25,684 bases of DNA from a virus (IMGVR_UViG_3300044657_000552:1-25684), one strand, 5' to 3'. Counted from the stretch's first letter, positions 1 to 24,055 are shown. Translations and numbers: made by a program. Notes: a model not told the origin generated them from the letters alone.

Positions 1-683
1 CCATCAAACGTCGTAATCGCAGACCCGTTCGCAGCCAACTCGACCGCTGTAGCACCAGTAGCGCCAATCAAACGGCCACCAACAAACCGGATGATCTCAT
101 CGTTCGTTGTGTGCCCCGCCAACGTAGAAGGCGCAGCCGTGCTACCCAGCGTTGTCGTGTGCAACGTATCCGACGCACCATACGCCAACCACAACGTCGT
201 ACCGTCAGAATCAAAATCAGTGATCGTTGGCGTGCCAGCAATCGAAGTCACCGTAGACCATGTAGGCGACGCAGTATCAAAATCGGTCGAGAAGTACATT
301 GTGGACCCGTCCACGACATACAAATACTCAGCCGCTCCGTTGCGAAACTGCTTCATGATCACGTCAGTGCCAGTGTTGCCCTTATCTACCGTTTTCGCCA
401 GCAACGACACCTGACCCTCAGTCCACACATCCACACCAGACGACGTGTAGAACCGGCGACGATCCGAGTCAGGATTATCCAGAAACTCCTGACCAGCGCC
501 GTACGACCAGTCAGTTTGCGACCGCACCCACATCTGCGTCGTCAACTGCTGCTCGCCAGCCTCATCAGACGTGTCCCGCTGCTCACGCAAAACAGGAATC
601 GTTGTACGACTGTACCCCTCGGTATCAATCATGTACGAGGTGCCATTGATCGCAACCGGCAGATACTCAGGCGAATGCGCCAT
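1..683 (-). CDS. Partial tail nozzle/stabilisation-like (beta-propeller) protein, runs off the window edge
   Basis: Not in the ORF track because there is no stop in the window. ATG at 683, 3 nt after the upstream stop, reads MAHSPEYLPVAINGTSYMIDTEGYSRTTIPVLREQRDTS...WVRSQTDWSYGAGQEFLD...SSGVDVWTEGQVSLL and stays open to position 1. It is beta-rich and follows the adaptor-like gene. Function is inferred from position. Confidence 0.7.
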   Translation of the reverse strand, partial: MAHSPEYLPVAINGTSYMIDTEGYSRTTIPVLREQRDTSDEAGEQQLTTQMWVRSQTDWSYGAGQEFLDNPDSDRRRFYTSSGVDVWTEGQVSLLAKTVDKGNTGTDVIMKQFRNGAAEYLYVVDGSTMYFSTDFDTASPTWSTVTSIAGTPTITDFDSDGTTLWLAYGASDTLHTTTLGSTAAPSTLAGHTTNDEIIRFVGGRLIGATGATAVELAANGSAITTFD

Positions 684-686
684 CGT

Positions 687-1619
687 TTACACCCCTCGGT
701 AAATCGAAGTCTGAGTGCGCCCACCGGAACGAGTCCAGATAGCCGGATACTGGCCGTTCAAACGAGTCGCTTCAGCATTGATCCGTTCCAAACGCAACCC
801 GCGCAGATCCCGCATCGACGCCGACACGGCACCAGCAGGCACCTCCTCAGCCATCCTCGAGGAACCCTGCTCGTCAAGAAACTCGCGACGGATCGGACGC
901 GACGACATCAGGCGCAGCGCCGCACCCAACACCGGCAGGTCGTAGCCCTCAGCATGCAACCCTGTCGTGGACAGCGCAGTAGTCGAATCAGTCAACGTAG
1001 AGAACCCGGTCTTGTACAGCACCCGTACTGTCTCTCCCGGCCACGCATCCGAATGCAGGATCAGGCCGTACCCTGACGGAAACGACGAAGTGTTACGGTC
1101 CCGTCGCAACGAAAACTCGGTGATCGACGGCTCCGACGCCTCAGACCCAGGATCCGAATACGTCACCTGATACACCGACAGAATGTCGTCCGTCACCCCA
1201 GTCAAGTCGTAGCCGTCCTGCGCAGCGTTGAACGTCAACTCTACTGTTTTGATCTGGAACAGGCCGTGTTGCGGCGACGACAAATCCCGCAACTCGTGAT
1301 TCAAAGCGTCAAGGATCTGATACGCAGGGAACTTCGGGTTCACCGTGACAAGCGAACCAATAGCGTGCGACGAAGCCTCAGAACCCTTATAGCCGCGGCG
1401 CACTGTCGCTGCACCAGAAGTCACCGAAAAGACGTACATCAATTCGGTGCCGACCTCGATCGTCGCGCCAGCAACCACACCCGGCACTGTCGCTGACGGC
1501 AACGCAAACGAAACCACCGTTTCGCTCGCATTCAACGCCGCACCCAACGTCGCCTGCTCCTCAACGTAATCCGTCAACAACAGATCACGGGTTTCATCAA
1601 TCCAAGTCTGAGCAGTCAT
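687..1619 (-). CDS. Putative head-to-tail adaptor / tail tubular protein
   Basis: 310 aa, with an ATGA overlap with the upstream gene. Helical termini surround a beta insert with the virion-protein motif 'IEVGTELM...VRRGYKGSEASSHAIG'. It precedes the nozzle-like gene. Confidence 0.6.
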   Translation of the reverse strand: MTAQTWIDETRDLLLTDYVEEQATLGAALNASETVVSFALPSATVPGVVAGATIEVGTELMYVFSVTSGAATVRRGYKGSEASSHAIGSLVTVNPKFPAYQILDALNHELRDLSSPQHGLFQIKTVELTFNAAQDGYDLTGVTDDILSVYQVTYSDPGSEASEPSITEFSLRRDRNTSSFPSGYGLILHSDAWPGETVRVLYKTGFSTLTDSTTALSTTGLHAEGYDLPVLGAALRLMSSRPIRREFLDEQGSSRMAEEVPAGAVSASMRDLRGLRLERINAEATRLNGQYPAIWTRSGGRTQTSIYRGV

Positions 1620-2014
1620 GTCTCACCCAACGCATCGCGAACTAGCCCCATCCCACGCTTACGACCCGTCGAGGTCGCAAACGTGTGACCGGAGTTTACC
1701 TCATGCTTCTCCTCCGCTTTAGCTTCCAGCTTCGCAGCCCCGTTTATCGACGGAGGCTGCACCCCGTCCTTGCGTAGCCGCTTGTACGCAGCCATATCCG
1801 CATCCTTCTCACGCTCCGCACGCCGCGTAGCGTCAAAATCAATCACGTTATTGCGTGACGGCACCGCCGACGGAGACACATACGGCATCCCCATCAACTT
1901 CCCCATCACTGCTCCGCACTCCATACAGTGCATATCCGGTTCATCATCGAACCCGTGCAACACTTCCTCAACCGCACCACAAACCTGGCAACGGTAGTCA
2001 TACCTCGGCATCAA
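1616..2014 (-). CDS. FmdB-family zinc-ribbon protein
   Basis: The N-terminus MPRYDYRCQVCG...HCMECG matches the FmdB CxxC...CxxC zinc-ribbon pattern. Overlaps both neighbours. Confidence 0.85.
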   Translation of the reverse strand: MMPRYDYRCQVCGAVEEVLHGFDDEPDMHCMECGAVMGKLMGMPYVSPSAVPSRNNVIDFDATRRAEREKDADMAAYKRLRKDGVQPPSINGAAKLEAKAEEKHEVNSGHTFATSTGRKRGMGLVRDALGET

Positions 2015-2295
2015 ATCTCCTCCACTGAGTAGCCGGCAGCAGTCAACGCGTCCGCTTCTGCTGATGTCAGATCAGTAGGCGACTCATGCCCGCCATAAAT
2101 TGTGCGGCTAATCAACGCCGGATCACCCGGCTGTCGAGTCGTTACTGAACCGTTCGTCAAAATAAACACGTTCCGGCCTTTCGCCCCCGGTGTACGGAAC
2201 CGTGCCAGGTTCCGCGCCGGATCAGAAACGTGATACGGGACAACGTCAACCTGCGGAAGAATGTTTTCTGTAGGCAACACGACACGAAATGCCAC
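2011..2295 (-). CDS. Hypothetical virion-associated protein (94 aa)
   Basis: Fills the gap between the fibre and zinc-ribbon genes. Same strand and codon bias as its neighbours, and its stop overlaps the next start. Confidence 0.7.
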   Translation of the reverse strand: MAFRVVLPTENILPQVDVVPYHVSDPARNLARFRTPGAKGRNVFILTNGSVTTRQPGDPALISRTIYGGHESPTDLTSAEADALTAAGYSVEEI

Positions 2296-2309
2296 AGGTC
2301 GCCCCTAAC

Positions 2310-3593
2310 TTACCCAGCTTCTAACGCTTCAACCCGAGCAGACAATTCCTGAACTGCTTTGATAAGAACAGGGACAAACTCTCCATAGTTCAACCCTTCC
2401 GTCCCATCAACAATGGGATCGCCCGTCAAAGGATCAACGGTTTGCTTATGCCACATCCCCACGTTTTGCGGACGGCCATAAGCATCCAACACTGTCCGAA
2501 CGTTCTGCGCCGACAACCACTCATGCTGCTCGTAAACCCCATCTGAATCGTCAGTCCAAACACCAGAAAAAGGGTTCAAATCGTTGATGAAATCAAGACC
2601 AAGCGCATCATCCAACATGGTCTTCCTGCGTTCATCAGACGTTTGGATAGTGCCGTTATCAGCCCAAACCTGAAGCCACTGCTGACCGCTCGCACCAAGC
2701 TCCTCAGTGCCATCCGTGTAAGGCACAACAGCAGTCGTCGTAACCCTCATACCGCCAGTACCGCTGTTAACAGTTATTGCAACTACGCCGCCAGCAGGTT
2801 GCCATATTCCACTGTCAGTATCAGTCCCGAAATAATATGATGGAGCGCCCACACTCCCCGTAGCAGCTTTATACCTTGTCGTGTCAAGAACATTTGACGA
2901 CGCATTGTAAGACAACCCAGTGTCGTACTTGACCTGCTGCGTACCGCCAGCAGTATTCAACAAGGCTGGGTAAGCACTAGAATCAGATGTTGACCCAGTA
3001 GAAACGTTCGTAGCGTTCGTAGCGTTCGTAACCGTACCAACAGTTGTCGAAATAGAAGCATTCGCAGAACCATCAATCGTCGTAGACCCAGTCACGTCGC
3101 CCGTCAACGACAACGTCCTCGCAGTCGTCCACTTATCCGCAGTCTCAACACCACCAGACACGCTCGTAGCAGTCGCAGCATTACCCGTAATGTCGCCATT
3201 CAACGTCGCCGTCGAAATATCCAAAATCGTTGCACCCAACGAATCCAGAATGTCGCCCGACAACCGGGCATTCACCGCAGTCACATCACCAGACAACGTC
3301 GCGTCCACAGCCGTCAAATCAGCCGACAACGTAACATTCGCCATCGAAGGCGAATCAGTCCACGCCGAAGTAGAACCCGACGCACACCCCAACACCTGAT
3401 TCGCAGAAGGCGTCGAAGACCCAATACCAACCTTCGTTTCAATCTGCTGAACAGCGTCACCAAGATTCTGATGCAAACCGGCATGAGTCGGATGACCCGA
3501 AGTCGAATCATCCAACGCCGTAACAGCCTCAGGCTCAGTGCCGCCACCAACATTCGTAGTCGCGTCAAGACTCCCAGGATAATTCGTAGCCAT
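2310..3593 (-). CDS. Tail fibre/spike protein with C-terminal intramolecular chaperone (Peptidase S74-like)
   Basis: The C-terminus has IQTSDERRK...LGLDFINDLNP...GLNYGEFVPVLIKAVQELSARVEALE, the S74 autocleavage chaperone signature. Fibre motifs include ADKWTTARTLSLTGDVTGS and ~11-aa TLSGD repeats. Thr/Ser/Gly-rich. Confidence 0.88.
   Translation of the reverse strand: MATNYPGSLDATTNVGGGTEPEAVTALDDSTSGHPTHAGLHQNLGDAVQQIETKVGIGSSTPSANQVLGCASGSTSAWTDSPSMANVTLSADLTAVDATLSGDVTAVNARLSGDILDSLGATILDISTATLNGDITGNAATATSVSGGVETADKWTTARTLSLTGDVTGSTTIDGSANASISTTVGTVTNATNATNVSTGSTSDSSAYPALLNTAGGTQQVKYDTGLSYNASSNVLDTTRYKAATGSVGAPSYYFGTDTDSGIWQPAGGVVAITVNSGTGGMRVTTTAVVPYTDGTEELGASGQQWLQVWADNGTIQTSDERRKTMLDDALGLDFINDLNPFSGVWTDDSDGVYEQHEWLSAQNVRTVLDAYGRPQNVGMWHKQTVDPLTGDPIVDGTEGLNYGEFVPVLIKAVQELSARVEALEAG
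3005..3031. repeat. 9-bp tandem repeat (CGTTCGTAG x3, last imperfect) encoding TNATNATN in the fibre
   Basis: Directly visible: cgttcgtag cgttcgtag cgttcgtaa. Confidence 0.8.
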
Positions 3594-3688
3594 CAGCGCT
3601 TACCCTTCTTCTTCTTCGCAGCAGCCTTCTTCGCCGCCGCCTTACCCGCCTTCGTATACGGATACTTCTTGCCACCAACCATCGGCAT
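3593..3688 (-). CDS. Small Lys/Ala-rich basic peptide (31 aa, MPMVGGKKYPYTKAGKAAAKKAAAKKKKGKR)
   Basis: Below the ORF-track cutoff. GGAG SD lies upstream, and its TGA overlaps the fibre ATG (TGATG). It fills the gap after the capsid terminator. Confidence 0.8.
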   Translation of the reverse strand: MPMVGGKKYPYTKAGKAAAKKAAAKKKKGKR

Positions 3689-3703
3689 AACCGGCTCCAA
3701 ACG

Positions 3704-3740
3704 TGAAAAGAGGGGCCGAGACCGGCTCCCGACCCCTCTT
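3704..3740 (-). terminator. Rho-independent terminator after the major capsid gene
   Basis: The minus strand reads AAGAGGGGTCGGGAG-CCGGT-CTCGGCCCCTCTT followed by TTCACGTTT, ~20 nt after the MCP stop. Confidence 0.8.
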
Positions 3741-3762
3741 CACACTACACCATCAACGCTTA

Positions 3763-4701
3763 TCAGTTAGCGCCGATGCTCGAAGACGTTTCAATCCGAC
3801 GGATCGAAGCCTCACGGAAACGGCTGTACCCGACAAGGTGGTACCAACCGACCGGCTGGAACCGGCGCAGAGTATCGGTCACCGGGCCGAACACGACCGA
3901 CGGATCCGAACCGAAACCGGTTGCACGGGAGTGCGCCTTCGCAAGCGCCTGCTTGCCGCAGACCACCGTGTTGTAGGCGTCCACAGTGCCGCTACCGCCG
4001 TCAGCGGTGATCTCAAGACGAGGAGTCTCGATGAAATCCACGCCACCGAAAGTACCGATGCTGCCTGCACGCACAGCGCCGCCGTCCTGACGGATCTGGT
4101 ACTGAATGATGTCAGTCACAGCGGTGTCTTCACGAAGGTCGAACGACACGTCAGGGTGAATGAACCCGACATAGACGTTGCCCATCATCGGCATAGCGGA
4201 ATCGCTACGCAGATTCGCGACAGCCTCACGAATGTCGCCGGCGTCAAGGTTGTCGGTAGCGTCAAGCGTCGCCGTCGAGGTCGCATCGCCACCGTACGCA
4301 ACGTTGCTGCCAGCAACAAGCACGTCGTGAACGACGTTGTCGATGCTGTTCGCCATGTTGTAACCGATGATGTTCGCAGCATCAGCGTCCACGTTCAGGA
4401 ACGAGGTGCCACGCAGCTTCGCCGTGGTGATAACAGCGTTGCCGTACTCGGCAAGAGTCACCGTCACGGTCGAATCGCTAAGCGCAACAGCGGTCACGTC
4501 CGACGTTTCGGTCAGAGCCGAAGTCGCCTGGGCAAGATCGTTGTAAATGTTGAACTGAACCGACGAGCCGGGGTGCGACTGGTTGGTCGTCTTCACATCC
4601 GCAACCATCTCGAACATCGGCTGCGAACGCAACGCGAAGTACGCAAACTGTTCAAATGCGGTGGTATCCGAAGACACCGAAGAGGTCTGAGTGTAAGCCA
4701 T
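3763..4701 (-). CDS. Major capsid protein, N4-gp56-like family (HK97 fold)
   Basis: 312 aa with TSALTE, VTVTLAEYGNAV, YVGFIHPDVSFDLR, IGTFGGVDFIETP and DTLRRFQPVGWY...RRIET, which are typical of N4-gp56-family capsids. It follows a scaffold-like gene and precedes a terminator. Confidence 0.9.
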   Translation of the reverse strand: MAYTQTSSVSSDTTAFEQFAYFALRSQPMFEMVADVKTTNQSHPGSSVQFNIYNDLAQATSALTETSDVTAVALSDSTVTVTLAEYGNAVITTAKLRGTSFLNVDADAANIIGYNMANSIDNVVHDVLVAGSNVAYGGDATSTATLDATDNLDAGDIREAVANLRSDSAMPMMGNVYVGFIHPDVSFDLREDTAVTDIIQYQIRQDGGAVRAGSIGTFGGVDFIETPRLEITADGGSGTVDAYNTVVCGKQALAKAHSRATGFGSDPSVVFGPVTDTLRRFQPVGWYHLVGYSRFREASIRRIETSSSIGAN

Positions 4702-4736
4702 TGGGATTCCTTCCCATCCGGCCTACCTCGGCTATG

Positions 4737-5189
4737 TCAAACTGCTGCGTTAATTGTGCCGCCGTGAGCTTCGATCAGAGCCGCAAGCTCTTCAGCATTG
4801 TTCGTCTGGGAGACCAGACTTGACCACTCAGGTGGCGACACAGGCCCAGCATCGTCAGCCGCCATCGCGATCCGCTGCTCCGCACCGTAATCAACGGGCG
4901 GTGCCTGCGCTGCTGGGGGATTACTGTCCCCAGCCAACCCAAGCTCAGTGGCTTCAGCACGAATAGCGTCCACAGTCATTTCGCCTTCGTAGCCCCGCAT
5001 AAAGTATTGACCCTGCTTTGACTGCGGATCAACACCTGCATTACGGAACGACACCTCGCGTCGCAACTGCGCCAACTCGGCAACCGCCTCATCCCCGGCT
5101 TTAGCCCGGTTCTCGAGGTCACGTCGCCAATTTGGCTTCGATTCTTGGCTAACAGAGTCTTCAGCCTCGGTAGGCATTTCATCTGTCAT
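4737..5189 (-). CDS. Putative capsid scaffolding protein
   Basis: 150 aa, acidic, with an N-terminal coiled coil (NWRRDLENRAK...AELAQLRRE). Lies directly upstream of MCP, with GAAGGTGAG SD. Confidence 0.75.
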   Translation of the reverse strand: MTDEMPTEAEDSVSQESKPNWRRDLENRAKAGDEAVAELAQLRREVSFRNAGVDPQSKQGQYFMRGYEGEMTVDAIRAEATELGLAGDSNPPAAQAPPVDYGAEQRIAMAADDAGPVSPPEWSSLVSQTNNAEELAALIEAHGGTINAAV

Positions 5190-5210
5190 ATGTCACTCAC
5201 CTTCGATACG

Positions 5211-5278
5211 CGTCTGCAACGGTGGAATGCAGACGGAGGATGGGTGGAACAGCTCACCTCGCATGAGGGCCGATCCAC
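5211..5278 (-). promoter_or_regulatory. Structured 5' leader (two hairpins) of the scaffold/capsid transcript
   Basis: Hairpin 1 is GTGGA-T-CGGC-CCTC-ATGC-GAGG-TGA-GCTG-T-TCCAC (5278-5244). Hairpin 2 is CGTCTGCA-TTCCACCGT-TGCAGACG (5235-5211), a perfect 8-bp stem. Confidence 0.55.
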
Positions 5279-5283
5279 TCGCC

Positions 5284-5313
5284 ATGTTAAGTCAACCTAA
5301 CAACAAGTGTCAA
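5284..5313 (-). promoter_or_regulatory. Sigma70/SigA-type promoter for scaffold-capsid genes
   Basis: TTGACA (5313-5308), an 18-nt spacer, then TAACAT (5289-5284). The -35 box overlaps the upstream stop codon. Confidence 0.7.
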
Positions 5314-5330
5314 GCACCATTACTCAAACC
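5310..5330. repeat. 21-bp direct repeat, copy 1 (TCAAGCACCATTACTCAAACC)
   Basis: Exact match to 6533-6553. The flanking bases differ on both sides. Confidence 0.97.
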
Positions 5331-5945
5331 TGTTGCTTCAAACAACAAACGCTGGGCATTAACCTCATCCAACCAGTTAGTCAACCGGCGAAGGTTCGCA
5401 TCTGGCCCGAAAACCAAAAACGTACCGTCAACCGAATCGCAACCAATCCAAGTTGCGTATCGCAAACGACGGAGGCTATTGACCCTCCCCATGTGCGCCC
5501 ATACTCTACGGTGATTCGCTTCGGCAACGATCGACCGCGCTTCCGACCCGAGCTTCCATTCCGTTGTGCCGCCGACGAAAACTGCACCGATCGCATCCCA
5601 CGGGACTGTGTCAACAGTTGCGCCGTCTTGCAAAACGATTGCTAACGGAACCGGCCAGTCGTCTTTCGGGAACTCATCCCATCGGCGCAGAGTCGCTGCC
5701 CAATCACCGACGACATCCGGCACCGTGACGAACAATGCGTTCGGATGATCGGCAACAAGTTTCCGATACTTTGCCAATGTGAACGCATCAGGTTGAGAAA
5801 AACACCCGTTATCAATGATCGTTGAAATGCCGTCTGTGACCCGCAGACGATTACCTTGAGCGGGCGTAATAATCGCTCCGAAGTCATCACGAGTCGCCAT
5901 TGCACAACGGATCGATTCAGTTGACGGATTTCCGAAGTAGATCAA
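5310..5945 (-). CDS. TGT-fold, DpdA-like 7-deazaguanine transglycosylase (putative)
   Basis: The motifs DNGCF, PDVVGD, VLQDG, FVGG, HMGRVN and DSVDGT fall in the same order as the TGT motifs DSGGF, D, QGG, GG, YLMG and DMFD (catalytic Asp). There is no CxCxxC zinc domain. Translationally coupled to a VUT transporter gene. Confidence 0.7.
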   Translation of the reverse strand: MIYFGNPSTESIRCAMATRDDFGAIITPAQGNRLRVTDGISTIIDNGCFSQPDAFTLAKYRKLVADHPNALFVTVPDVVGDWAATLRRWDEFPKDDWPVPLAIVLQDGATVDTVPWDAIGAVFVGGTTEWKLGSEARSIVAEANHRRVWAHMGRVNSLRRLRYATWIGCDSVDGTFLVFGPDANLRRLTNWLDEVNAQRLLFEATGLSNGA

Positions 5946-6499
5946 CTATCGCCTGAGACCATCACCGTGAACTCGGTCAGCGGCTGCTCGTATCGCTGAC
6001 GGGCCATCGCGACGATCGGGAGAGCAACAGCGACCATGATCGCCTTGCCGACGATCTGCCCGGTAATGTAGTTGAGCGACCCGAACGCGAGCCAGAGGAA
6101 CACGATCGAGTCTGCGATCGACCCGACGACGTTCGACGCAGCGACAGCGATCGGCCAGTTGCGCTCTCGTAGCGGTGCGTACACGCCGAGATCGAACAGC
6201 TCGGCAAGTAGGAACGCTGCGCCTGATGCGACGGCGATTGACGTTACGCCTCCGGGGATCGAGACGGCGTCGCTCAGCAGCCACGAGAGACCGGCACCTG
6301 CGACGATCGCAGGGACCACGGCGCGGACCCCGCCGTACTCGTGGATGGCGTCGCGCAGCCCGAACGTCAGGCCGGCGAAGAACACCCCGGCTGGTGCGGT
6401 AAGACCGAGACCGATGCCGATCACCCCCCACGTTTCGAGCGCCCAATTCGCTCCAATAATTGTAAGCAGAAATGCACCAATAGTTGCTTTTAACTTCAC
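5942..6499 (-). CDS. VUT/YhhQ (DUF165-like) queuosine-precursor transporter
   Basis: 185 aa and hydrophobic, with several TM segments. Motifs ANW, PAGVFFAGLTFGLRDAIHE, ASGAAFLLAELFDLGVY, ASNVVGSIADSIVFLWLAFG and GQIVGK are characteristic of VUT. GTG start with AAGGAG SD. Confidence 0.88.
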   Translation of the reverse strand: MKLKATIGAFLLTIIGANWALETWGVIGIGLGLTAPAGVFFAGLTFGLRDAIHEYGGVRAVVPAIVAGAGLSWLLSDAVSIPGGVTSIAVASGAAFLLAELFDLGVYAPLRERNWPIAVAASNVVGSIADSIVFLWLAFGSLNYITGQIVGKAIMVAVALPIVAMARQRYEQPLTEFTVMVSGDS

Positions 6500-6532
6500 A
6501 GGGTTTCTCCTTTTGAGTTTTGTGTAATTTTA

Positions 6533-6553
6533 TCAAGCACCATTACTCAAACC
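6533..6553. repeat. 21-bp direct repeat, copy 2 (TCAAGCACCATTACTCAAACC)
   Basis: Exact match to 5310-5330. Encodes the GLSNGA-stop end of the 402-aa gene. Confidence 0.97.
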
Positions 6554-7741
6554 GACGACACCCGCTCGAGTCATCAACGCACCAGACTGGCGAACACCAC
6601 GCTGCTCACGCAACGCCCGCAACCGGGCAAGGTCCGCAGTAGCCTCAGAATCCAACCCGAACTCGGCGGCAGCAAACTCCGAAGACGTAAACTCTTCCTC
6701 ACCAACAAGCTGCTGCGTAATCGCACGTTGCCCACGGAACCGCTCAGCAATCTCACGTTGCTGCACATTCATGTCCACAAGCCGTTCAGCAACCCCAGTT
6801 TCAAACCCTGCCCCCAAAGTGCTGAAAGACGCAGACGACAAACCAGCCGCTTCAAGCTGCAACCGCTGCTCAATAACATTAGTGCCACGCTGCGGGTCAA
6901 GGTAGTAGGCGATCAGTTCGCCGTCGTTCTCGACACCAACCCCGTACATCTCCTGCAACTGTGCTTTCAAATTCGGGTCGATCGACCGGACAGCTTCAGC
7001 CGCCAACGCGATCCGTTCACCCATCTCGTTCTGAGACACGTCGTTACCGATGAACTCTGCGAAATCATCAACCGAATCGTAGAAACCCTCGGGGATGCCG
7101 GCAGTCATCATCATGTTGCGATATTGACGTTCAAGTTCGATGTATTGGGCAGGGCTGATCTGTGCATGGTTGTTAGCGCGCCGCAGTTCCAAACCAGGGA
7201 ACCGTGCAGCAAACTCAGGAGTTTGCCGTAGCCGCAACAGAACAGCTTGCGGACCAAGACCATCAAGCAGCATGTTGTACGCCTGGTCTGCGAGTCCCTC
7301 AAGGCCGTAGAGAGCTAGTTCGTCTTTGATGATCTCTAACGCGTTGAGGGCTTCTTGTTCAGCTTGTTCTTCTGCGAGCCCTTCAAGAACATCCATGCCG
7401 CCATCAACGCCGCTGCTGCCTGTACCGGTAGCCCCGCTTGTACCGGTAGCCCCGCTTGTACCGGTAGCCCCAGCCCCGCTTGTGCCAGTACCTACAGGAA
7501 CGGACCCGCCGGCCATCGCCCTAAGTGCCGCTTTTTGTTCTTCTGTCGCAGTTGCGCTGAACTGCCTAAGCGCTTCCAACTCCGCTGGCGACAACGCAGC
7601 GAGCGCCGCCCGCTCTGCTTCAGTCAACTGCTGAGTCGTCGTTGTTGATGGCGTGGATGTGCCAAACGGACGATACGGGTCCAAATCCCCCATCGTCGTA
7701 GGAATCTGATCTAGGTACGCAAACCCTTCACCTTCAGCCAT
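6533..7741 (-). CDS. Putative internal virion/ejection protein (402 aa)
   Basis: Helical and Ala/Glu-rich, with a low-complexity linker. Last of the run of tightly coupled large ORFs between portal and scaffold. Function is inferred from context. Confidence 0.6.
   Translation of the reverse strand: MAEGEGFAYLDQIPTTMGDLDPYRPFGTSTPSTTTTQQLTEAERAALAALSPAELEALRQFSATATEEQKAALRAMAGGSVPVGTGTSGAGATGTSGATGTSGATGTGSSGVDGGMDVLEGLAEEQAEQEALNALEIIKDELALYGLEGLADQAYNMLLDGLGPQAVLLRLRQTPEFAARFPGLELRRANNHAQISPAQYIELERQYRNMMMTAGIPEGFYDSVDDFAEFIGNDVSQNEMGERIALAAEAVRSIDPNLKAQLQEMYGVGVENDGELIAYYLDPQRGTNVIEQRLQLEAAGLSSASFSTLGAGFETGVAERLVDMNVQQREIAERFRGQRAITQQLVGEEEFTSSEFAAAEFGLDSEATADLARLRALREQRGVRQSGALMTRAGVVGLSNGA
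7421..7483. repeat. 18-bp tandem repeat (TGTACCGGTAGCCCCGCT, ~3 copies) encoding SGATGT linker
   Basis: Units at 7421-7438 and 7439-7456, a partial unit at 7457-7471, then a degenerate copy. Confidence 0.9.
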
Positions 7742-7743
7742 AG

Positions 7744-9681
7744 CTACGCCACCTCTCCAAACACTTCGCCAATAGCGAACGTCAACGCATACGCCGCATC
7801 AATACCCTGCGAAGACTCCTGCCACTCAGGCAACCCTCGAGCAAACCGGCGAACCTCGTTCAACGTCATCGGACGCATCTCGCCGTTCTCTGCCATATAG
7901 CTCACAACCTCAGGAAACTCCTCGTACAAATCAACGTTCGGACGCCCCAAGATCCGTTCCAACTCGTACTTGTACGGAGCAAAATACTGTTCAGGAGTGA
8001 TGTTGGCAGCAAGAGCATTAGCCAACATCGGGTACTTCGCCGCAGCCTGCTCCTTGAACATCTGCTCGACACCTTCAGGAGTTTGATTACCGAAGTAAAT
8101 GTCTTGAGCCAGAGTCGAAGCATCGTAAGTGCCAATCGGCGTGTAATAACTCTTTGACAACGACACCAACGAATCAGTAATCGCAGCAAAACTTGAACTT
8201 TCAACAACCGACAGATCGTAGCCGCCCTGTCCAACAAGCGTTTGCCGGATGAAATCAATGTCGTCAGCTTCGCCCAGATACAGAATGTCGTTCGCCATCT
8301 GCATCGCAAGCTCATCGGTCAAGCTCACACCGAGGAACACCGCTTCGTCTTTGAGTTGCTCCAGAACCGGATCGAAGTATTCTTTCTTCTCCAGATCCGT
8401 CATGTTCGCCATCAACGCGTCATGGCGACGCATAGCGTTATCAGTGGTCTGATACCAAGTCGTTTGCTGAACTACTTTGAGAACCTGGTTCGGGTCAACA
8501 ATGCCGTACTCGACCATCATGTCAACGACGTTCATGACCCTTGTTGCACGGGGATCGTCTGTTGGTACGGGTGAGCCGTCAGCGGTGACACCGACTTGGA
8601 GTTGCTGGTCGTATTTGTCGAGGAAGAATGTGATGCCGCCGAATCGTTCGATTAGTAGGCGTTGAACTTCGGACATGTCTGCGGCAGCAGTTGCGACAAC
8701 ACCGCCGCCACCGGTAGTGCCGCCGCTTCGAGTACCGCTAGAAGTGCCGTCGTCGGCTGTAGTGATTTTAAACCCCAAACCTTCCAGCATTGCTTTAGCA
8801 TCAGCAACATTTATTGCTGGTTCTGCTGTTTCTTCTGGTTTGTCAGGCCCCAGGTCGTAACCCATCTCGTTCAAAGCAAACAGGCGGTTGCCTTCGGCTA
8901 CCCGCTGCTCATCAGCAGACATCGTAGGCTGTCGCGTTCCAAACTCAGACGGCGGCCCCTGAAACTGCGTCGTAGCCTGACCCAAATCCCGAGTCGCAGG
9001 AGCAGGAGGCGTATAATTACTCACCGCAGCTAACTGCGCCTGAACATTCTCATCTCGAGCAGCAGGCGCAGTCGGCACCAGGCCAGAAATCACATCAGGC
9101 GGCACCAACTGACCCAACGCCGCCACCTGCGACCCAACATCCTCCTGATTCAACTGCTCTTCAATAGGACGCAACTGTTGAAGAGTTTGCTGATACTGCT
9201 CAATCTGTTGCCTCGAATCGGCAAGATCAACGTCTGAAACGTCTTCCCACAAACTCTCAATGCGACCAACAGTAAGGTCAACACCGTACGGCTCAATCCC
9301 CTCAATGTCACCCTCTTGGTCAGCAACAGCAGAAGCCAACTCAGAAAAAGTAAACGAACCATCAAGTGCAAGTCCGTTGCTAAGAACAACTCCTTGAATA
9401 TTTTGCGGACCTTCTAGCAAACGCTGCAACGTCAACTGTTCATCACGTCTACGCCGCTCTTGAGTATTGATCTCAACAACAACACCAAGAAGACCACGAA
9501 TAAGACGCTCTAAATCAGATTCACCAAGCCGGCCTTCACCGCCGCCCAACAAAAGCTGAACCCGCTGAAGATTTTCAATATTTTTTTCAGCTTCACGAAC
9601 ACTGCTCTCCGCATCGCTGATCTCATTTTCAAGTTTCTTACGCTCTGAATCAAGCAGATCGTCGTACTCTTCCCAAGCCAT
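7744..9681 (-). CDS. Putative internal virion/ejection protein (645 aa)
   Basis: Long ORF with a coiled-coil N-terminus, a P/T/G linker and a helical C-terminal region. Start overlaps the upstream stop (TAATG). Confidence 0.6.
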   Translation of the reverse strand: MAWEEYDDLLDSERKKLENEISDAESSVREAEKNIENLQRVQLLLGGGEGRLGESDLERLIRGLLGVVVEINTQERRRRDEQLTLQRLLEGPQNIQGVVLSNGLALDGSFTFSELASAVADQEGDIEGIEPYGVDLTVGRIESLWEDVSDVDLADSRQQIEQYQQTLQQLRPIEEQLNQEDVGSQVAALGQLVPPDVISGLVPTAPAARDENVQAQLAAVSNYTPPAPATRDLGQATTQFQGPPSEFGTRQPTMSADEQRVAEGNRLFALNEMGYDLGPDKPEETAEPAINVADAKAMLEGLGFKITTADDGTSSGTRSGGTTGGGGVVATAAADMSEVQRLLIERFGGITFFLDKYDQQLQVGVTADGSPVPTDDPRATRVMNVVDMMVEYGIVDPNQVLKVVQQTTWYQTTDNAMRRHDALMANMTDLEKKEYFDPVLEQLKDEAVFLGVSLTDELAMQMANDILYLGEADDIDFIRQTLVGQGGYDLSVVESSSFAAITDSLVSLSKSYYTPIGTYDASTLAQDIYFGNQTPEGVEQMFKEQAAAKYPMLANALAANITPEQYFAPYKYELERILGRPNVDLYEEFPEVVSYMAENGEMRPMTLNEVRRFARGLPEWQESSQGIDAAYALTFAIGEVFGEVA

Positions 9682-10454
9682 TATCGACCACCAATCCCCA
9701 ACACCTGCATCAACATCCCAGCAGCATTAGCGTAATCCATCGCCGCCGCCTCATTCGGAGCCTGCTGCCGAGCAAACGCCTCCGCACGAGCAGGCACACT
9801 GATCGAAGACACCCCAGACGCCTGCAACCCGTGAATCATCTTCACAAACGACTGCTGCTCCGCAGGCGACGCCATACGGCCCGTCACCGACGCCGAAGCC
9901 TGCTTCGCCGCGTCAGCCAACGCATACGGATCAATATAGTTGATAACTCGACCACCGCCGCCGGCAGTAGCCGCCGCCTTCGCCTGAGCCAACGCAGCGC
10001 TCAAATTCTCAGGAGTGCTGTTGTAGTTGCGAAGCAACACACTCAGAAAGTCAGTGTCCACCCCAAAATTTGTTGACTGCCTAGCAAGCTCGATCGTGTC
10101 CTGCACCTTGTCCACGAAATACTGCTGGTCAAGTTCGCCTTCTTCAGAAAACATGTAGTCGAGGTTCTCGTACACGCCGACTGTAAACATGTCGATCGCT
10201 AACAGTCCTTGTTCTTCACGCGACAGCCCGGTCAGGATGTTTCTGATGTCGCTGAACATCACAGGCGTCGGAGCCATCCCTGGCCCTGCCTGCACCGGTT
10301 CCGCATACTCACGGTACTGGAGCCGCCCAGGCTGCATGCTTTCCGGTCCGAACCCGATAAACGAATCGCCAGAAGCTTGTGCTTCTCGGTCAGAAGCGGC
10401 TATGGCATTTACTTGGGCGTCACGTTCGGCTCTCGTAGGCGACGGTGTAGTCAT
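9681..10454 (-). CDS. Putative internal virion protein (257 aa)
   Basis: Ala-rich and helical, with 1-nt stop/start overlaps on both sides. Confidence 0.55.
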   Translation of the reverse strand: MTTPSPTRAERDAQVNAIAASDREAQASGDSFIGFGPESMQPGRLQYREYAEPVQAGPGMAPTPVMFSDIRNILTGLSREEQGLLAIDMFTVGVYENLDYMFSEEGELDQQYFVDKVQDTIELARQSTNFGVDTDFLSVLLRNYNSTPENLSAALAQAKAAATAGGGGRVINYIDPYALADAAKQASASVTGRMASPAEQQSFVKMIHGLQASGVSSISVPARAEAFARQQAPNEAAAMDYANAAGMLMQVLGIGGR

Positions 10455-13400
10455 CAGAACAACCCTTCAAAAGCATCATCATCAACAAACGTTCTAGGAT
10501 CCAAACTGTCACGTTCAAAGTAACGGTCATAAATCGCAGAAAACTCGGGAATCAAACTCAACTCCGCTTTCGCCTGCTCCCAATACAACAATAGATCCTC
10601 ATTCGACTTATTGCCGATATTGTCCGAACCGCCCTCAGACTCCCGTTCCTGCAAACGAGTCTGCACATACATCCGCAAATCGAAATACTCGATCACATGC
10701 CGAGTCGAAGGACGCTGCAACAACTGTTCGTCCTGCAACCCGGCAACAAACCCGTCCACAACATCTTTCATACGGGCCGTAGAAGAACCGTAATCATCGA
10801 ACTGTTCAGCCCACGCCGGATACTTCTTCCGCAAAGCATCGATCTCCCGCTCCACATACGCAGCCAACGGACGCATATGCGAAGCGTTCAACGAACCCGA
10901 CATGCCCGCAGCAATCGCCTCCTCCTCCTTACTGCGCTTGTAATCAGCCAGATCCGTGTACGCCTTCCACCCCAACTCGGCCTGCGTATCAAGCATCGCC
11001 TCCAACGGCGTCTTCCGCGACCGGCGAGTCTCATCAGACCCAGGAGCCAACGCCATGTTCATCTGACGCCGATACACAGCCTGCGAAAACACGAACTTCT
11101 CATCCGAAGACCCAAGACTGGCTGTCACCCACGCACCAATTTCAGGATGCGCCTGCACCAAATCCTGATGCTTCATATACAACTCTTCAGACTCAATCGA
11201 CGCAGCAACCCCATCGTTCAACTGCGTCATACGGGCAGTCAACGCAAAGAAATCTTCGCCATACAACTCGAGGAACATCGAGTTGCCTTCAAGAGTGCCG
11301 TGTTCACGTTGCAACCGGCGGGCCTCTTGCACCAACGGCTCGTACGGTGACAGAAGCGTTGTAGACGTAGGCGAGAAGAACCCAGCAGCGACACGGAACA
11401 GCGAGAACTGTTTGGCCCGGTCGTTCGCTAGCTCAATCGCAGCGTTCAACTCGAGGTCGTCTGCCCAGTCGATCGGGTCGCCGGCTTCGGCGCGTTGCGT
11501 AACGATGTCTTGGAAGAATCGTTGCACGAGTCGTTCAGTTGTTTGCGAATCACGGAAATAATCGTCAAGCGACTTCGCCCATGTCGGCAGGTTGCCTTTG
11601 ACGGCACGGTCAAAGAAACCGCCTTCGGGATGCCCGAACGGGAACATGAACCCGAACGTTTCTTCCAACCCCGGCTTCTCAAGGATCGCTTCACGCACCG
11701 GCACCGTAATAAGCGGCCCGAACCCTGGCAGCGGCGCTGACGTGATCGTGTTCAACCCTTCCTTCGAGAACCGGACAGTAGCGTCTTGATCTTGCAACAT
11801 CTTCGGGATCAGCAAGTTCCGCATCGTCGGAGACATCGCATCGAAAATCGTTGTTTCGTTGCCGTCCGAGTCGTAAGCAGGACCGAACGGTCGGAACATC
11901 AGATACGTCGGGCCTTCAGTGCCGTCATCGTTCTCGATCGTGACTTCGCTGATACCAAGAGCCTGAGCGTCCCATTCCTTGCGGTACAGACGCGCCATGT
12001 TGCCAACGAACGTCGGGTTCTCCAAAGCAAACCCGCCCCAACGGCCAAGCACTTCTTGCCACGCATTGAAGAACGGCATCGAGTTGCCGACCATCTCACT
12101 GATACGAGTGTTCTCAGCAAGGTCGTACATCACTTCGCGTACTTCTGTCAGCGCCGAGTCGCGAGCTTGTTTCTCCAACTGGTCAATTTGTTTCTGAGAC
12201 AACCGGACGTTGCCGTCAGGGTCTGTGATGAGCGCTACCCGGCGTCGCAGTTCTCGTTCGTACCGGGTGCTGAAGAACGGGTTACGGGCAAGTTCGTCGG
12301 TCGGGAGCGTACCGAACATTTTGAACAGGTCTTCAGCCCATACAGCTACTTTCTCTCCCCAAACTGTTCGTGATGCCCCCTGATGCGAGATCGGTTCAGG
12401 AGCAACCGCTTTCCCAAACCCAGGATACCCGTTTTCTCGCATCCACATGATCTTGTGGTGAAGAGCCCAGTCGTCCCCCCACCCTTCCATGTCATTCAAT
12501 TCGTCAACAACGGTTTGCCATTTTGGCGGTTGACCTGATTGAGCCGCCTCACGCAACTTGCCGAAATAATCGCTTGGAAGAACATTCTCGTACTCTTCAA
12601 CAATGTTTTTGGCAATCGCCGTCAACTCGCCTTCAGCCAAATCCTTATAATGGGCTGACACCAAATTGTTGAACAACGTGCGATCTTTCTCCAACAACTG
12701 TGCAAGAGCTTCAATACGTTCATTTAAGTCCCCAGACCTCCAAACAATGTCGTAGAACTCTTGACCGTAACCTGCGGACGTATACATGTTCATCATGTTC
12801 GACCACTCGCTATCAAGATGAACAACGTTGATCGCCTCACCATCTTTGAAAACGACCGAATCCCACGCTTTGAAATCCACGTTCTGGAACTGCCGCAACT
12901 GGCGTTCGGCGTCACGCAACGCACCCGAATACACCGCCGACTGCGACCTAGAAGCAGACACACTCGCCCGAATCTGTTCTTGGAACCGAGGATCGTCACC
13001 AAACGCGTTACGGAACGACAACCCCCCAATCGACAACCCGCCAACACCAGCCTTCTGCATCAACTCCTCAGCAGCATCAAACGTATTCTTCGCTTCCGTA
13101 GCCTTGCCAGCAACCGCCGCATCCTCAGAATCAATCAACTTCTGAATATGAGTGGCGTCGTCCAACATCTTGCGCGCCTCAGCAGCTTCCTCTGGGCCAA
13201 CAGCGTCTTTCAACAACTGCTGGGCCTCGCTACGCAACCTCCCTGCATAATTCAACGCAGCTTTCCGCTCGAGCGCCCGATTGATGTTGCGTCGTTTACT
13301 CGTAGCCGCAACAAACCCGTACAACCCGCCGGCGACAGGGTTCCCCATCAACGCACCGAAGGCGATTCCTTTCAAAGCTGCGTTACGACCCAGGCGACGA

Positions 13401-15868
13401 GCATTGCTCTGACGTTTCTTCAACTGGCGTGCGTTCAAAACTTTCTCACGGGTCAACTGCTTTACAGCGTCGTTAAGCCCGTCTTCACCAGCCGCCTTGT
13501 ACAAGTCGTACAACGTCTCAACGCCTTCATCGCCAACGTCTTTGCCGACCTTCTCTTTCAGAATCCTAGTGATCGCATCAATATCGGTTGCTTCATCAAT
13601 CCCATCAAGTTTGTGCAACGCAAACGCACGCCGAAGTTGAGGAAACCTCGTAATCAAATTGCCAAGCGAAGTTATTCCGCCGAGAACCGCTGCCGCACGC
13701 AACTGCTCATCCAACCCGACACGCATCGGCCACTTCGGAGTCAACAACATGCCTGAACGCCACGCCTGCTGCGGCTTGTCCAAAACGTGACGGCCACGCC
13801 CAACAACGCCTCGAGAAACGTCACCAACCTTCACAGCAACCCGACGCGGCCCTACGCTTTCACGAGCCTGCGCCAACTCGATGTGGCGCTGCACAACGTC
13901 ATAACGAGGCTGCACCGCAGAGTTCTGCACCTGCGAAGGCGACATACGATGGTTCACAACAATTTTCCTGCCATCAGGCAACTGTCGAGTAGTCGTAACC
14001 TGCCCTGCCTGGTCTGTTACCCCAACCGCACGCGACGCTTCCTCCTGCCAGTCACGCGACGCTTTCCCATATTCATCTGACAACGTGCGCCGGAACGGAT
14101 CTATGTCCACCCCAAGATCAGCATCATCCAACAACCCGTCAATACGCGTATTCAACTGCTCCACAGTGTTCACATACAACTGGCGCATCAGTTCTTTGTC
14201 GCCTTTCAACGACATGCGCCGAAACGACGACACCAGCTTCGCAGCCTGATCCGCAGCAAGAAGCGTTTCGCCGTTGACAACAACCCTGTTCGCTTGCGTC
14301 AACACCCGCTCAAACTGGTCAACAGCACTCGGATCATCAAAGAAAATGTGCGTCTGCGGAGTGCGCTCCGAAATCACCCGAATAGCTTTGCCATAGAAAC
14401 CGCCACGGCTACCCCCCACCGTGTGCGGATTATAAAACTCTGACAACACAACCTCGTCCGTCAAATTCTGATCAAGAACGTCCTGGTGCTGCCGCAACAA
14501 ACCGCTAAGACGATTACCAAACGGCAACTGACGAACCTGCCCGGCGTTCAACCCCAAGTTCACGTCATCAGACGTTGCAATAATGTTTTCCAAAGCTGCA
14601 CGCAACAACGCGTCATCTTCAGTAGCAGCAAAATCCGTTAAATACCGGGCTTCGTTTGTGTAATAACGGCCATTGATAAACTTAACGTTGAACTGTTGCG
14701 AATCAAACAACGCGTCCCTGAACTGATGCATCACAGCCCAGTCCACCTGTTCCGACAATTTAATGAACCGATTCGTTGCCTCAGAATTCGCTGTCTTCGG
14801 ATCCCTCAAATCTCGAACAATCGAAGTCCAGTCGTCGCCTTTTGTAATGTCCAACAACTCTGACGCCAGATCACTGACCTCTTGCATCACAGTCATGTCG
14901 CCGGCAAGCGCCCGCATCGTGACCTTGCGTGCCTCAAACGTTTGAGCATTCGCCAACAACTCGACTGCTTCATTCGTCATCTTCAAACCGGCACGCCCGG
15001 TTTCTTGACGAAACGCTTCGGACCGTTCCGCAGCCGTCGCATATTTCGCCATCGCCGCATCAACACGTTTGAAATCTTTGCTTTCAACAAACGCTTGCGC
15101 CCGCTGCGACGTATGCGACTGAATGATCTCAATACGATTTGAAAGCTGATCTGACGTTTTGAACCTGACCGGACGAAGCCCCGTGCCACCCCCATACACC
15201 CTCGTAATATCTCGAGGAGCGCCGATCAACGCTCCACGCGTCGGACGGGTCGCTTTCCCGAACACGGCAGCGCCACGAGCAGATTTCAACGCAGTCCCGC
15301 CAAAGATCGTCACCGGGTCAATGAATTCCTGCACAAAGTCGGCGGTGCCTGAAATCAGGTTGAAAATCGGGTCGTCTTGAATCGAGTTGTATTCGTCTTC
15401 GTCAAACGGATCAATATAAAACAGGTTCGCAGCGAACGACTGACCAAACGTGCGTTTGTCGTTGATGTCCCACGCTTTCGCATACGTCTGAGCATCAAAC
15501 AACGACTGGATACCGGTTTGATGCGTCGCGTTGACCACGGTAAAAATTGTGCCCAACGGGCGGTCAACGACTTCCTGAATCGTCCAGTCCCACGCACCCA
15601 ACACCGGGTCAATAACCGTGCGGGCAGGGGCACGAACTTCTTCCGGCAACGCACCGATCAAAGCGCCACCGATACCCTCAGGACCAAACAACCCGCCGAT
15701 TGTTTGCGTCAACAAATCTTCTTGCGCCGAATTGATGACCTGCTCCGCAGCGCCACCAAAATCGCCGGTCACCGCCGTACGGGCAGCACCAACCAAATCA
15801 ACAACAAATTCGCCAGGACCAGTGACAGCATCAATCGCGCCGTTGAAAACCTTGTCCAGAAACCCCAT
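10454..15868 (-). CDS. Large internal virion/DNA ejection protein (1804 aa)
   Basis: Very long and mostly helical, with Gly/Ala amphipathic segments and a C-terminal LPGFGPL...PFG region. Its size and position resemble podoviral large core proteins. No enzymatic motif was recognised. Confidence 0.65.
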   Translation of the reverse strand: MGFLDKVFNGAIDAVTGPGEFVVDLVGAARTAVTGDFGGAAEQVINSAQEDLLTQTIGGLFGPEGIGGALIGALPEEVRAPARTVIDPVLGAWDWTIQEVVDRPLGTIFTVVNATHQTGIQSLFDAQTYAKAWDINDKRTFGQSFAANLFYIDPFDEDEYNSIQDDPIFNLISGTADFVQEFIDPVTIFGGTALKSARGAAVFGKATRPTRGALIGAPRDITRVYGGGTGLRPVRFKTSDQLSNRIEIIQSHTSQRAQAFVESKDFKRVDAAMAKYATAAERSEAFRQETGRAGLKMTNEAVELLANAQTFEARKVTMRALAGDMTVMQEVSDLASELLDITKGDDWTSIVRDLRDPKTANSEATNRFIKLSEQVDWAVMHQFRDALFDSQQFNVKFINGRYYTNEARYLTDFAATEDDALLRAALENIIATSDDVNLGLNAGQVRQLPFGNRLSGLLRQHQDVLDQNLTDEVVLSEFYNPHTVGGSRGGFYGKAIRVISERTPQTHIFFDDPSAVDQFERVLTQANRVVVNGETLLAADQAAKLVSSFRRMSLKGDKELMRQLYVNTVEQLNTRIDGLLDDADLGVDIDPFRRTLSDEYGKASRDWQEEASRAVGVTDQAGQVTTTRQLPDGRKIVVNHRMSPSQVQNSAVQPRYDVVQRHIELAQARESVGPRRVAVKVGDVSRGVVGRGRHVLDKPQQAWRSGMLLTPKWPMRVGLDEQLRAAAVLGGITSLGNLITRFPQLRRAFALHKLDGIDEATDIDAITRILKEKVGKDVGDEGVETLYDLYKAAGEDGLNDAVKQLTREKVLNARQLKKRQSNARRLGRNAALKGIAFGALMGNPVAGGLYGFVAATSKRRNINRALERKAALNYAGRLRSEAQQLLKDAVGPEEAAEARKMLDDATHIQKLIDSEDAAVAGKATEAKNTFDAAEELMQKAGVGGLSIGGLSFRNAFGDDPRFQEQIRASVSASRSQSAVYSGALRDAERQLRQFQNVDFKAWDSVVFKDGEAINVVHLDSEWSNMMNMYTSAGYGQEFYDIVWRSGDLNERIEALAQLLEKDRTLFNNLVSAHYKDLAEGELTAIAKNIVEEYENVLPSDYFGKLREAAQSGQPPKWQTVVDELNDMEGWGDDWALHHKIMWMRENGYPGFGKAVAPEPISHQGASRTVWGEKVAVWAEDLFKMFGTLPTDELARNPFFSTRYERELRRRVALITDPDGNVRLSQKQIDQLEKQARDSALTEVREVMYDLAENTRISEMVGNSMPFFNAWQEVLGRWGGFALENPTFVGNMARLYRKEWDAQALGISEVTIENDDGTEGPTYLMFRPFGPAYDSDGNETTIFDAMSPTMRNLLIPKMLQDQDATVRFSKEGLNTITSAPLPGFGPLITVPVREAILEKPGLEETFGFMFPFGHPEGGFFDRAVKGNLPTWAKSLDDYFRDSQTTERLVQRFFQDIVTQRAEAGDPIDWADDLELNAAIELANDRAKQFSLFRVAAGFFSPTSTTLLSPYEPLVQEARRLQREHGTLEGNSMFLELYGEDFFALTARMTQLNDGVAASIESEELYMKHQDLVQAHPEIGAWVTASLGSSDEKFVFSQAVYRRQMNMALAPGSDETRRSRKTPLEAMLDTQAELGWKAYTDLADYKRSKEEEAIAAGMSGSLNASHMRPLAAYVEREIDALRKKYPAWAEQFDDYGSSTARMKDVVDGFVAGLQDEQLLQRPSTRHVIEYFDLRMYVQTRLQERESEGGSDNIGNKSNEDLLLYWEQAKAELSLIPEFSAIYDRYFERDSLDPRTFVDDDAFEGLF

Positions 15869-24054: not shown

Positions 24055-24055
24055 A

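Follow-up and report, generated by a model that had tools for sequence, protein, structure and literature searches.

The two overlapping genes at positions 5310-6499 of this aquatic phage sequence probably form a mobile cassette, whose transporter would import a 7-deazaguanine and whose TIM-barrel enzyme would swap it for guanine in phage DNA. A pairing of DpdA with YhhQ only has already been catalogued in phages, and the pair is widespread, a variant of phage 7-deazaguanine DNA modification. What appears to be new, judging from the sequences, is an enzyme branch with a different pocket, a split between making and importing the base, and a cassette that can be removed exactly and was found both filled and empty.

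Gene pair and genomic setting

The window, by which we mean the whole stretch of DNA analysed, is an entire assembled linear virus record of 25,684 nt, estimated to be about 70% complete; three complete relatives measure 36.6-38.4 kb. In profile scans (Pfam, PHROG, NCBIfam), the minus strand was seen to carry genes for the terminase, the capsid and the tail fibres. Near-identical DNA of this aquatic phage occurs in estuary, freshwater and marine sequencing runs. A host search in 401 genomes of one actinobacterial class gave no match to the phage capsid protein. The window contains neither a tRNA gene nor an integrase. Upstream of the terminase, an 892-aa protein (21436-24114) carries four lectin-like virion domain repeats (PHROG 10356, Laminin_G_3), and a FmdB-like zinc-ribbon gene (1616-2014) lies amid the tail genes.

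Both ORFs of the pair were confirmed on the minus strand, at the place that the sequence-only reading had given them. The upstream gene (5942-6499, minus strand) encodes a small membrane transporter of 185 aa of the Vut_1/YhhQ (COG1738) type (Pfam PF02592; PHROG 4899); it has a GTG start with AGGAG 7 nt upstream. The second gene (5310-5945, minus strand) begins with TTG in a 4-nt overlap with the TGA of the transporter gene and encodes a compact, zinc-less protein of 211 aa, predicted by AlphaFold, Foldseek and hhalign to be a DpdA/TGT-type transglycosylase. The data support a coupling of enzyme and transporter that looks obligate.

The assignment of the transporter to the VUT family held, with a PF02592 (Vut_1) score of 50.9 bits (E = 2.8e-13) against a curated cut-off of 27.2 and five hydrophobic segments. 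It scored below both NCBIfam YhhQ models (NF008406, 35.5 vs 252 bits; TIGR00697, 32.4 vs 50.95 bits). The protein is 34% identical to the "putative preQ0 transporter" of CAjan and 47% identical to the Vut protein of phiLM21. YhhQ subgroups are described as differing in their substrates.

The enzyme family

The 211-aa enzyme has no match in Pfam or NCBIfam, but belongs to PHROG 15826 (function not given; E = 4.5e-55). This family comprises 4,226 proteins among 4,400 candidates (90% clustering), in 2,494 clusters at 50% identity, and none of its members matched another PHROG consistently. In the GenBank phage collection, 27 records matched the enzyme by tblastn; none of these matches was a DpdA1 gene, and homology to DpdA1 is thus remote only. 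Neither of the phages nt-1 (DpdA2) and phiST (DpdA3) was among the 27. Only three phages of about 60 kb from enteric bacteria or Vibrio carry a homologue in this collection. Several homologues are labelled "DpdA-like tRNA-guanine transglycosylase" in GenBank by SEA-PHAGES annotators.

The motifs DNGCF, PD, QDG, GG, HMG and DSVD, from which TGT-like character had been proposed, are all present in this order. Two family alignments of 107 and 119 rows, with five rows common to both, showed D77, Q106, G125, G126, H151, R154, N156, D173 and G174 to be invariant; D45 was kept in 107/107 and 117/119 rows. The DSVD motif stood in modified form: its invariant aspartate is the second one, D173, whereas D170 varies (kept in 88/119 rows). 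The proposed lack of the zinc domain of tRNA TGTs was borne out across the family, with CxCxxC in 0/107 and 0/119 rows.

Longer forms of the protein also occur, with unannotated C-terminal extensions (351-755 aa), a zinc-ribbon fusion or a DUF6884 fusion (L106, L107, L132, L141, L147, L129, L169, P0258). In phiG7, the homologue is split into two overlapping ORFs (phiG7_20 and phiG7_21; L176:4929-5521) beside a canonical DpdA in a Seuratvirus deazaguanine cluster.

The AlphaFold model of the enzyme (pLDDT 94.1) is a beta/alpha TIM barrel. A Foldseek comparison, suggested earlier as a check, placed structures of the TGT family (Cap10, Z. mobilis TGT) in positions 1-7 among PDB entries (E from 5e-5 to 1e-4), with Cap10 at 4.8e-5 and TGT at 7.0e-5. 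VIA-align ranked an archaeal TGT first (Z 14.1, rmsd 4.4, 208 aligned), Cap10 fourth and DpdA tenth, with the highest identity (15%) for DpdA 7ui4. Because these Z-scores lie within about one Z unit of those for unrelated TIM barrels, the fold alone is not decisive. A sequence search of the PDB, with the protein and with one family alignment (A1), returned nothing below E 0.4.

Sequence profiles, unlike the fold, place the predicted enzyme with DpdA rather than with tRNA TGT. With hhalign, the best match was a family of 226-aa proteins, which includes MED16 gp38 and matches SEN1, SW9 and 7-11 (96.5%, E = 8.8e-10). Three phage DpdA1 proteins followed (93.5%, E = 2.3e-7; reversed control 0.2%), in a local alignment that is solid only over residues 37-130 and with a template of three rows, because a wider locus search yielded Sonali only. 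Nine bacterial tRNA TGTs reached 1.4%. None of the 107 family members matched the Pfam DpdA model PF23859 at E up to 1, and neither the enzyme nor these members matched the Pfam TGT model PF01702. DpdA4/DUF6610, a short viral TGT-like protein (PMC10516641) and the nearest named cluster by language-model features (0.90, 187/256), was considered as the family and ruled out by hhalign (1.2% against a 120-row DUF6610 alignment) and by 0/107 matches of PHROG 15826 members to PF20314. The PHROG 15826 family is a separate branch, closest by profile to DpdA1 and to the singleton DpdAs of MED16 and 7-11.

In the putative active site, D45, D77, Q106, G126 and D173 correspond to D102, D156, Q203, G230 and D280 of TGT (numbering from PMC5699537), and D45, D77 and D173 align with the DSG, LD and DSS motifs of DpdA1; D173 is assigned from the global alignment, from the fact that it is invariant and from an alignment with TGT that is weak. 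The aspartates also correspond to D95, D130 and D256 of Salmonella DpdA, in which D95A and D256A abolish exchange (PMC10164549). At the position of TGT Gln203, a Gln is found in 107/107 and 119/119 rows, while the three aligned DpdA1 proteins have His; in bacterial DpdA, His181 (S. Montevideo) reads the base edge (PMC10164549). The residue after the first Asp is mostly Asn in the family and Ser in DpdA. Because Gln replaces His and mostly Asn replaces Ser, the specificity may differ from that of DpdA. The pocket of the family would be marked by N46 in place of Ser, Q106 in place of His and a polar T127/T128 that follows GG, together with an invariant R154-x-N156 and a near-invariant K131.

Source of the base

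The sequence-only reading had described a salvage-only system, on the ground that folE, queD, queE and queC were not seen in the window. This absence was upheld: no que/folE family was found among the 21 window ORFs scanned, and QueC had no match in the record, which is the whole assembly and covers about 70% of the genome. Since about 30% of the sequence is missing, salvage alone is not provable for this particular genome, and the search of the rest of the genome that had been proposed reached as far as the record does. What could be retained is import at the level of the family.

A survey of gene neighbourhoods, also proposed earlier, covered 172 loci (92 viral and 80 prokaryote), the best matches of 581 and 258 confirmed stretches, respectively, duplicates included. 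The transporter was found beside the enzyme in 109/172 of these best loci, in 89 directly upstream, in 6 upstream with a gap and in 14 downstream; after grouping at 80% identity, the count was 74/114 groups. The remaining 63 best loci had no Vut gene, and most of them had no que genes close by. Whole records were searched for 48 of the 92 viral loci, picked for length, and for two GenBank phages. Among these 50 virus records, Vut_1 was present in 39 (36 above cut-off), QueC in 5 and FolE in 3, and none of the 39 Vut_1 records contained QueC or FolE (Fisher p = 2.2e-4, or 0.018 for 20 near-complete records, in a test that takes no account of kinship or of incomplete contigs). In a FastTree tree, the five QueC loci occupy four positions. 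In one locus the order is queC-queE-queD-enzyme (L044), and in another queD-queE-queC-enzyme with folE nearby (L063), where queD and queE were named by eye from motifs. The QueC case of Sonali is weaker, because its que genes accompany another DpdA, a canonical one. The pair is found without QueC and FolE in complete cultured phages, among them the Arthrobacter phage Aoka, the cluster P1 phage GreaseLightnin and ReqiPine5. The gene contexts of the family support import instead of synthesis at this level. For the present genome, five long relatives with an empty site had neither QueC nor FolE.

In 7/172 best loci (L031, L036, L038, L082, L092, L098, L108) and in Aoka (gp39, L174:3667-3996), the enzyme gene has as its neighbour a QueF-like gene in which the catalytic Cys is present. 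It encodes a T-fold protein of about 105 aa (HLCP, ELHSL, ISHE), often lies between Vut and enzyme, and could make dG+ or dPreQ1.

The reverse survey started from the transporter. Of 151 viral Vut loci, the best 80 were surveyed, and 75 of these had a TGT/DpdA-type enzyme within 4 kb: 24 of the PHROG 15826 family, 36 of the singleton-DpdA family, 14 of Pfam DpdA and 1 DpdA1-like, with none in 5. All four neighbours of Vut that belong to family C scored E 4e-56 or better on PF23859. As the same viral Vut clade pairs with PF23859 proteins and with the 226-aa family related to MED16 and 7-11, the enzyme partner seems to be interchangeable. The split between making and importing the base and the 75/80 best viral Vut loci with a DpdA-type enzyme speak for phage YhhQ as a functional component of the module. 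Loci with Vut and other DpdA-type genes include L283-L299 and L342 (e.g. L286:4449-5222) and L301-L356 (e.g. L304:1533-2213).

With the same DNA chemistry, the base could come mainly from the host pool, which the transporter would top up, and the modification could be a sparse self mark, directed against Dpd-type systems or a single particular restriction system, or have a role in packaging rather than act as general armour. CAjan synthesizes preQ0 itself, and deletion of its yhhQ is described as silent; 7-11 and MED16 reportedly carry low dADG without synthesis genes, 63/172 best loci lack Vut, and the cassette is dispensable, the site being empty in 60/66 informative loci of the capsid search. 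On the other side, Vut stands beside the enzyme in 74/114 groups and is absent exactly where QueC or FolE occur. Moreover, 30 of 40 carrier prokaryote genomes (out of 80) had no TGT, leaving 10 with TGT above cut-off, and the 30 therefore probably have no Q pathway to draw on. We consider a base from the host pool possible but unlikely, and import by the transporter the better account.

DNA or RNA as target

A DNA target is favoured by the profile neighbours, by the absence of the zinc domain, by a predicted DpdC fusion and by DNA-modification genes in the neighbourhood. The fusion is a single case, in which the enzyme is joined to DUF6884 (DpdC; P0258); a DUF6884 partner was found in 0/50 virus records. 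A gene for a DNA methylase, a PAPS-reductase-type, ParB-like, Mom, GP88 or TAGT protein occurs within 6 kb in 53/114 groups, a count made without a background control for genes that are common in phage genomes. Avoidance of palindromes (CGCG 0.46, GGCC 0.51, GATC 0.92) was uninformative on the target motif.

Within 6 kb, one contig (L018:8768-13124) carries a C5 methylase, a PAPS-reductase-type gene, a DUF6610 gene and an enzyme of PHROG 15826. In Streptomyces elements (L125, L127, L139, L143-L145, L149, L150, L160, L161, L170), the enzyme is found without Vut, amid PAPS-reductase-like and Mom-family genes.

The assumption that such modification blocks restriction is contradicted for the nearest assayed relative, MED16. 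The dADG content per million nucleotides was reported as 354 for MED16 and 50 for 7-11, and the dADG level as 0.13% and 0.02%, respectively (PMC6884629, PMC8306585); MED16 DNA was still cut by the G-containing enzymes tested (PMC8306585). Orion, with DpdA alone, is described as unmodified; dpdA was not found in the stretch 1-14000 of Orion. In Sonali and phiG7, a PHROG 15826 member occurs beside a canonical DpdA1, and this co-occurrence hints at a different job.

YhhQ together with TGT is an experimentally proven minimal bacterial salvage set. The pair in the window could likewise be a minimal tRNA salvage kit, by which queuine or preQ1 is imported and inserted into host or phage tRNA, as in the set described in the passage on Chlamydia in PMC5699537. 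Q106 would fit, since it matches TGT Q203 and not the His of DpdA, as would the lack of TGT in most carrier hosts; Z. mobilis TGT fills the Foldseek list, and the PDB has many such entries. However, profile similarity is 1.4% to tRNA TGT compared with 93-96% to DNA-acting DpdAs, the zinc domain that TGT uses for dimerisation (PMC5699537) is missing, and the window has no tRNA gene. Partners of the family, moreover, include QueC/D/E, QueF-like proteins and one DpdC-like fusion. These observations make tRNA an improbable target.

The enzyme might also insert a base new to DNA, such as queuine or a non-deazaguanine purine analogue, or reverse or edit canonical DpdA marks. The subfamily-specific pocket (N46, Q106, T127/T128, R154-x-N156, K131), the divergent Vut and the co-occurrence with canonical DpdA1, in Sonali and, with the homologue split in two ORFs, in phiG7, are consistent with this. 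Yet operon links to preQ0 synthesis (L044, L063) and the QueF-like genes point to preQ0, and Table 2 of Hutinet 2019 (PMC6884629) gives dQ as below detection for each of its 7 phages and for 1 mutant, so that we rate a new base or an editing role as quite improbable. Of the earlier suggestion that substrate and target may be new, the short and divergent sequence and the distinct pocket thus stand, while a new base or an RNA target is not the likeliest outcome. Very improbable is an anti-defence pair that binds or drains the 7-deazaguanines of QueC-dependent defences (type IV CBASS, QatABCD): Cap10, a TGT-family protein described as binding a deazaguanine-protein conjugate and keeping the catalytic Asp, came top in Foldseek and fourth in VIA-align, but its lead over TGT is negligible (E 4.8e-5 vs 7.0e-5), family members sit in preQ0-making operons, and the sequence profile groups the enzyme with DpdA.

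For the preferred reading, modification of phage DNA with an imported base, we propose the following course. The base that the transporter would import is a 7-deazaguanine, preQ0 or one of its close derivatives being the likeliest, and the compact enzyme would exchange guanine for it at a limited set of phage DNA sites. By the chemistry of TGT and DpdA, D173 would attack C1' and, with D45 serving as acid/base, release guanine; the base edge would be read by D77, Q106 and the backbone of G125-G126, and N9 of the new base would resolve the intermediate. Across the PHROG 15826 family, gene context suggests that the base may be imported (Vut), synthesized (queC-queE-queD-folE) or drawn from the host, and that some members also have a QueF-like gene, whose product would modify the nitrile. 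No promoter-like site belongs to the cassette itself, which would be transcribed together with the virion genes and may therefore act late, around packaging. The benefit, the weakest step of the proposal, would probably be the shielding of particular sites from host defence.

Relation to known systems

The singleton DpdAs (MED16 gp38, 7-11, SEN1, SW9; group 3 of Hutinet 2019) are likewise compact and zinc-less and share the DNG and PD(V/I) motifs. They are also the best profile match (96.5% for the family, 90.8% for MED16 gp38), are likewise without synthesis genes, and have aquatic relatives that occur together with this Vut clade in 36/80 best loci. However, the proteins are only marginally similar when compared pairwise (25% over 73 aa, E 0.006), the singletons have His and FGSS where the window enzyme has Gln and GG(S/T)T, and the PHROG differs. 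On the singleton family-B model, the window enzyme scored 5 bits compared with 162 bits for MED16 gp38, and thus does not cluster with the singletons by sequence; by profile, theirs is a sister family. MED16 and 7-11 were assayed for dADG (PMC6884629, PMC8306585), whereas the PHROG 15826 branch is known from sequence.

DpdA1 (Rosebush gp2, Sonali gp87, phiG7_16/CAjan type) shares the aligned catalytic Asp trio and GG motif with the window enzyme. Where Rosebush has parB-dpdA-queC-queD-queE-folE beside the terminase, ReqiPine5 has the pair, and CAjan-type clusters include YhhQ, 34% identical to the window transporter. In contrast, DpdA1 proteins measure 296-385 aa compared with about 205 in PHROG 15826, have His instead of Gln, and usually go with full preQ0 synthesis, about 30% of G reportedly being replaced. 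The tRNA TGTs (bacterial and archaeal) and CBASS Cap10 have the TIM barrel and the D102/D156/Q203/G230/D280 pattern in common with the window enzyme, which is about half as long, without zinc domain and at a profile value of 1.4%.

The same gene content, DpdA and YhhQ only with no que genes, is listed for phiLM21, CDKM15 and eHP-6 in Supplementary Data 1 of Hutinet 2019 (PMC6884629); their DpdA was not matched by the window enzyme in the phage collection. That paper counts 76 DpdA-only phages, proposes precursor uptake from outside and reports "no correlation" of YhhQ with any group, whereas the link between PHROG 15826 and Vut is tight. DpdA3 and DpdA4 were defined by Cui 2023 (PMC10516641). 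None of the carrier phage names searched appears in the tables of Hutinet 2019 and Cui 2023, and we found no paper on the PHROG 15826 branch, although one of the seven clusters in the MED16 paper (PMC8306585) could contain it.

In what is known of 7-deazaguanines, the DpdA-only phages of group 3 are the part that lacks an explanation, both for the source of the base and for its purpose, and the PHROG 15826 branch is large and absent from the tables of the two published surveys checked. As there are cultured carriers on laboratory hosts that are harmless and have no queuosine pathway, base feeding offers a direct test of DNA modification that depends on import. A zinc-free transglycosylase of 211 aa would be the smallest handle for DNA base exchange.

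A removable cassette

The pair is bounded by a 21-bp direct repeat, whose two copies are 100% identical. The upstream copy (6533-6553) forms the last 7 codons of a conserved gene for 402 aa (6533-7741, minus strand; PHROG 8424, function not given), which lies between portal-region genes and the capsid gene and may encode a virion protein. The downstream copy (5310-5330) forms the last 7 codons of the enzyme gene. On this side the cassette is flanked by a gene for 150 aa (4737-5189, minus strand; PHROG 7813, function not given), a putative scaffold gene that immediately precedes the gene for the major capsid protein (3763-4701). Apart from the two copies, exact 21-mers occur in the window solely in a tandem array at 7410-7490. 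This array of 18-bp units within the 402-aa gene encodes Gly/Thr/Ser/Ala repeats, and run X5 has one unit fewer.

Among 80 loci of a search with the capsid protein, 60 had an empty site, 4 were filled, 2 had the 3' end of the enzyme gene and 14 were too short; the site was thus empty in 60/66 informative loci. In run X14, a contig of 355 nt corresponds to 6533-6871, and the 16 letters that follow are those of 5294-5309; this is an exact empty allele with one copy of the repeat. A contig of the filled junction is present in the same run. A contig of run X1 joins 5278 to 6567. An assembly artefact at the 21-mer was ruled out by a contig of 1,458 nt (run X2) that spans 5186-6643 with no difference.

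Both repeat copies are present in three metagenome contigs. In one locus (L001) and two other metagenome contigs, an identical one-base change occurs in both copies, as expected if recombination resets them. Filled relatives of 75% identity (L005-L007) lack the repeat. In an unrelated phage with a Mu-type portal (L002-L004), the cassette is found at 94% identity between the protease and portal genes, with 97-99% over much of the enzyme gene and with unrelated flanks (L003), and we therefore conclude that it was recently exchanged between lineages. An exact empty site in relatives and a near-identical copy in an unrelated phage characterize this cassette as mobile and of the moron type; recombination would be the route of its gain and loss. 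Its GC content is not distinct.

A promoter-like site (TTGACA-18-TAACAT; 5284-5313, minus strand) overlaps the stop codon of the repeat with its -35 box; one such site was found compared with 1.1 expected by chance. Relatives with an empty site (L192) or a filled one (L005-L007) likewise have TTGACA or TTGACG at this stop codon. The site would drive the scaffold-like and capsid genes, a reading that is weak when taken alone. Coverage in two RNA runs is limited to pieces of the capsid and scaffold genes and says nothing either way on the cassette.

A bolder reading takes PHROG 15826 as a fifth type of DpdA, a very large branch with its own importer clade, that writes a 7-deazaguanine new to DNA (e.g. 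queuine, in view of the Gln in place of His and of the polar pocket) or marks a new motif and spreads as a 1.2-kb repeat-bounded cassette, gained and lost at the capsid promoter, with mixed modified and unmodified virions as the outcome. We regard this combination as improbable.

The position of the pair among late genes had been called unusual. This view had to be given up, as a terminase or portal gene lies within 6 kb in 25/114 groups, and in both Rosebush and ReqiPine5 the module is found beside the terminase.
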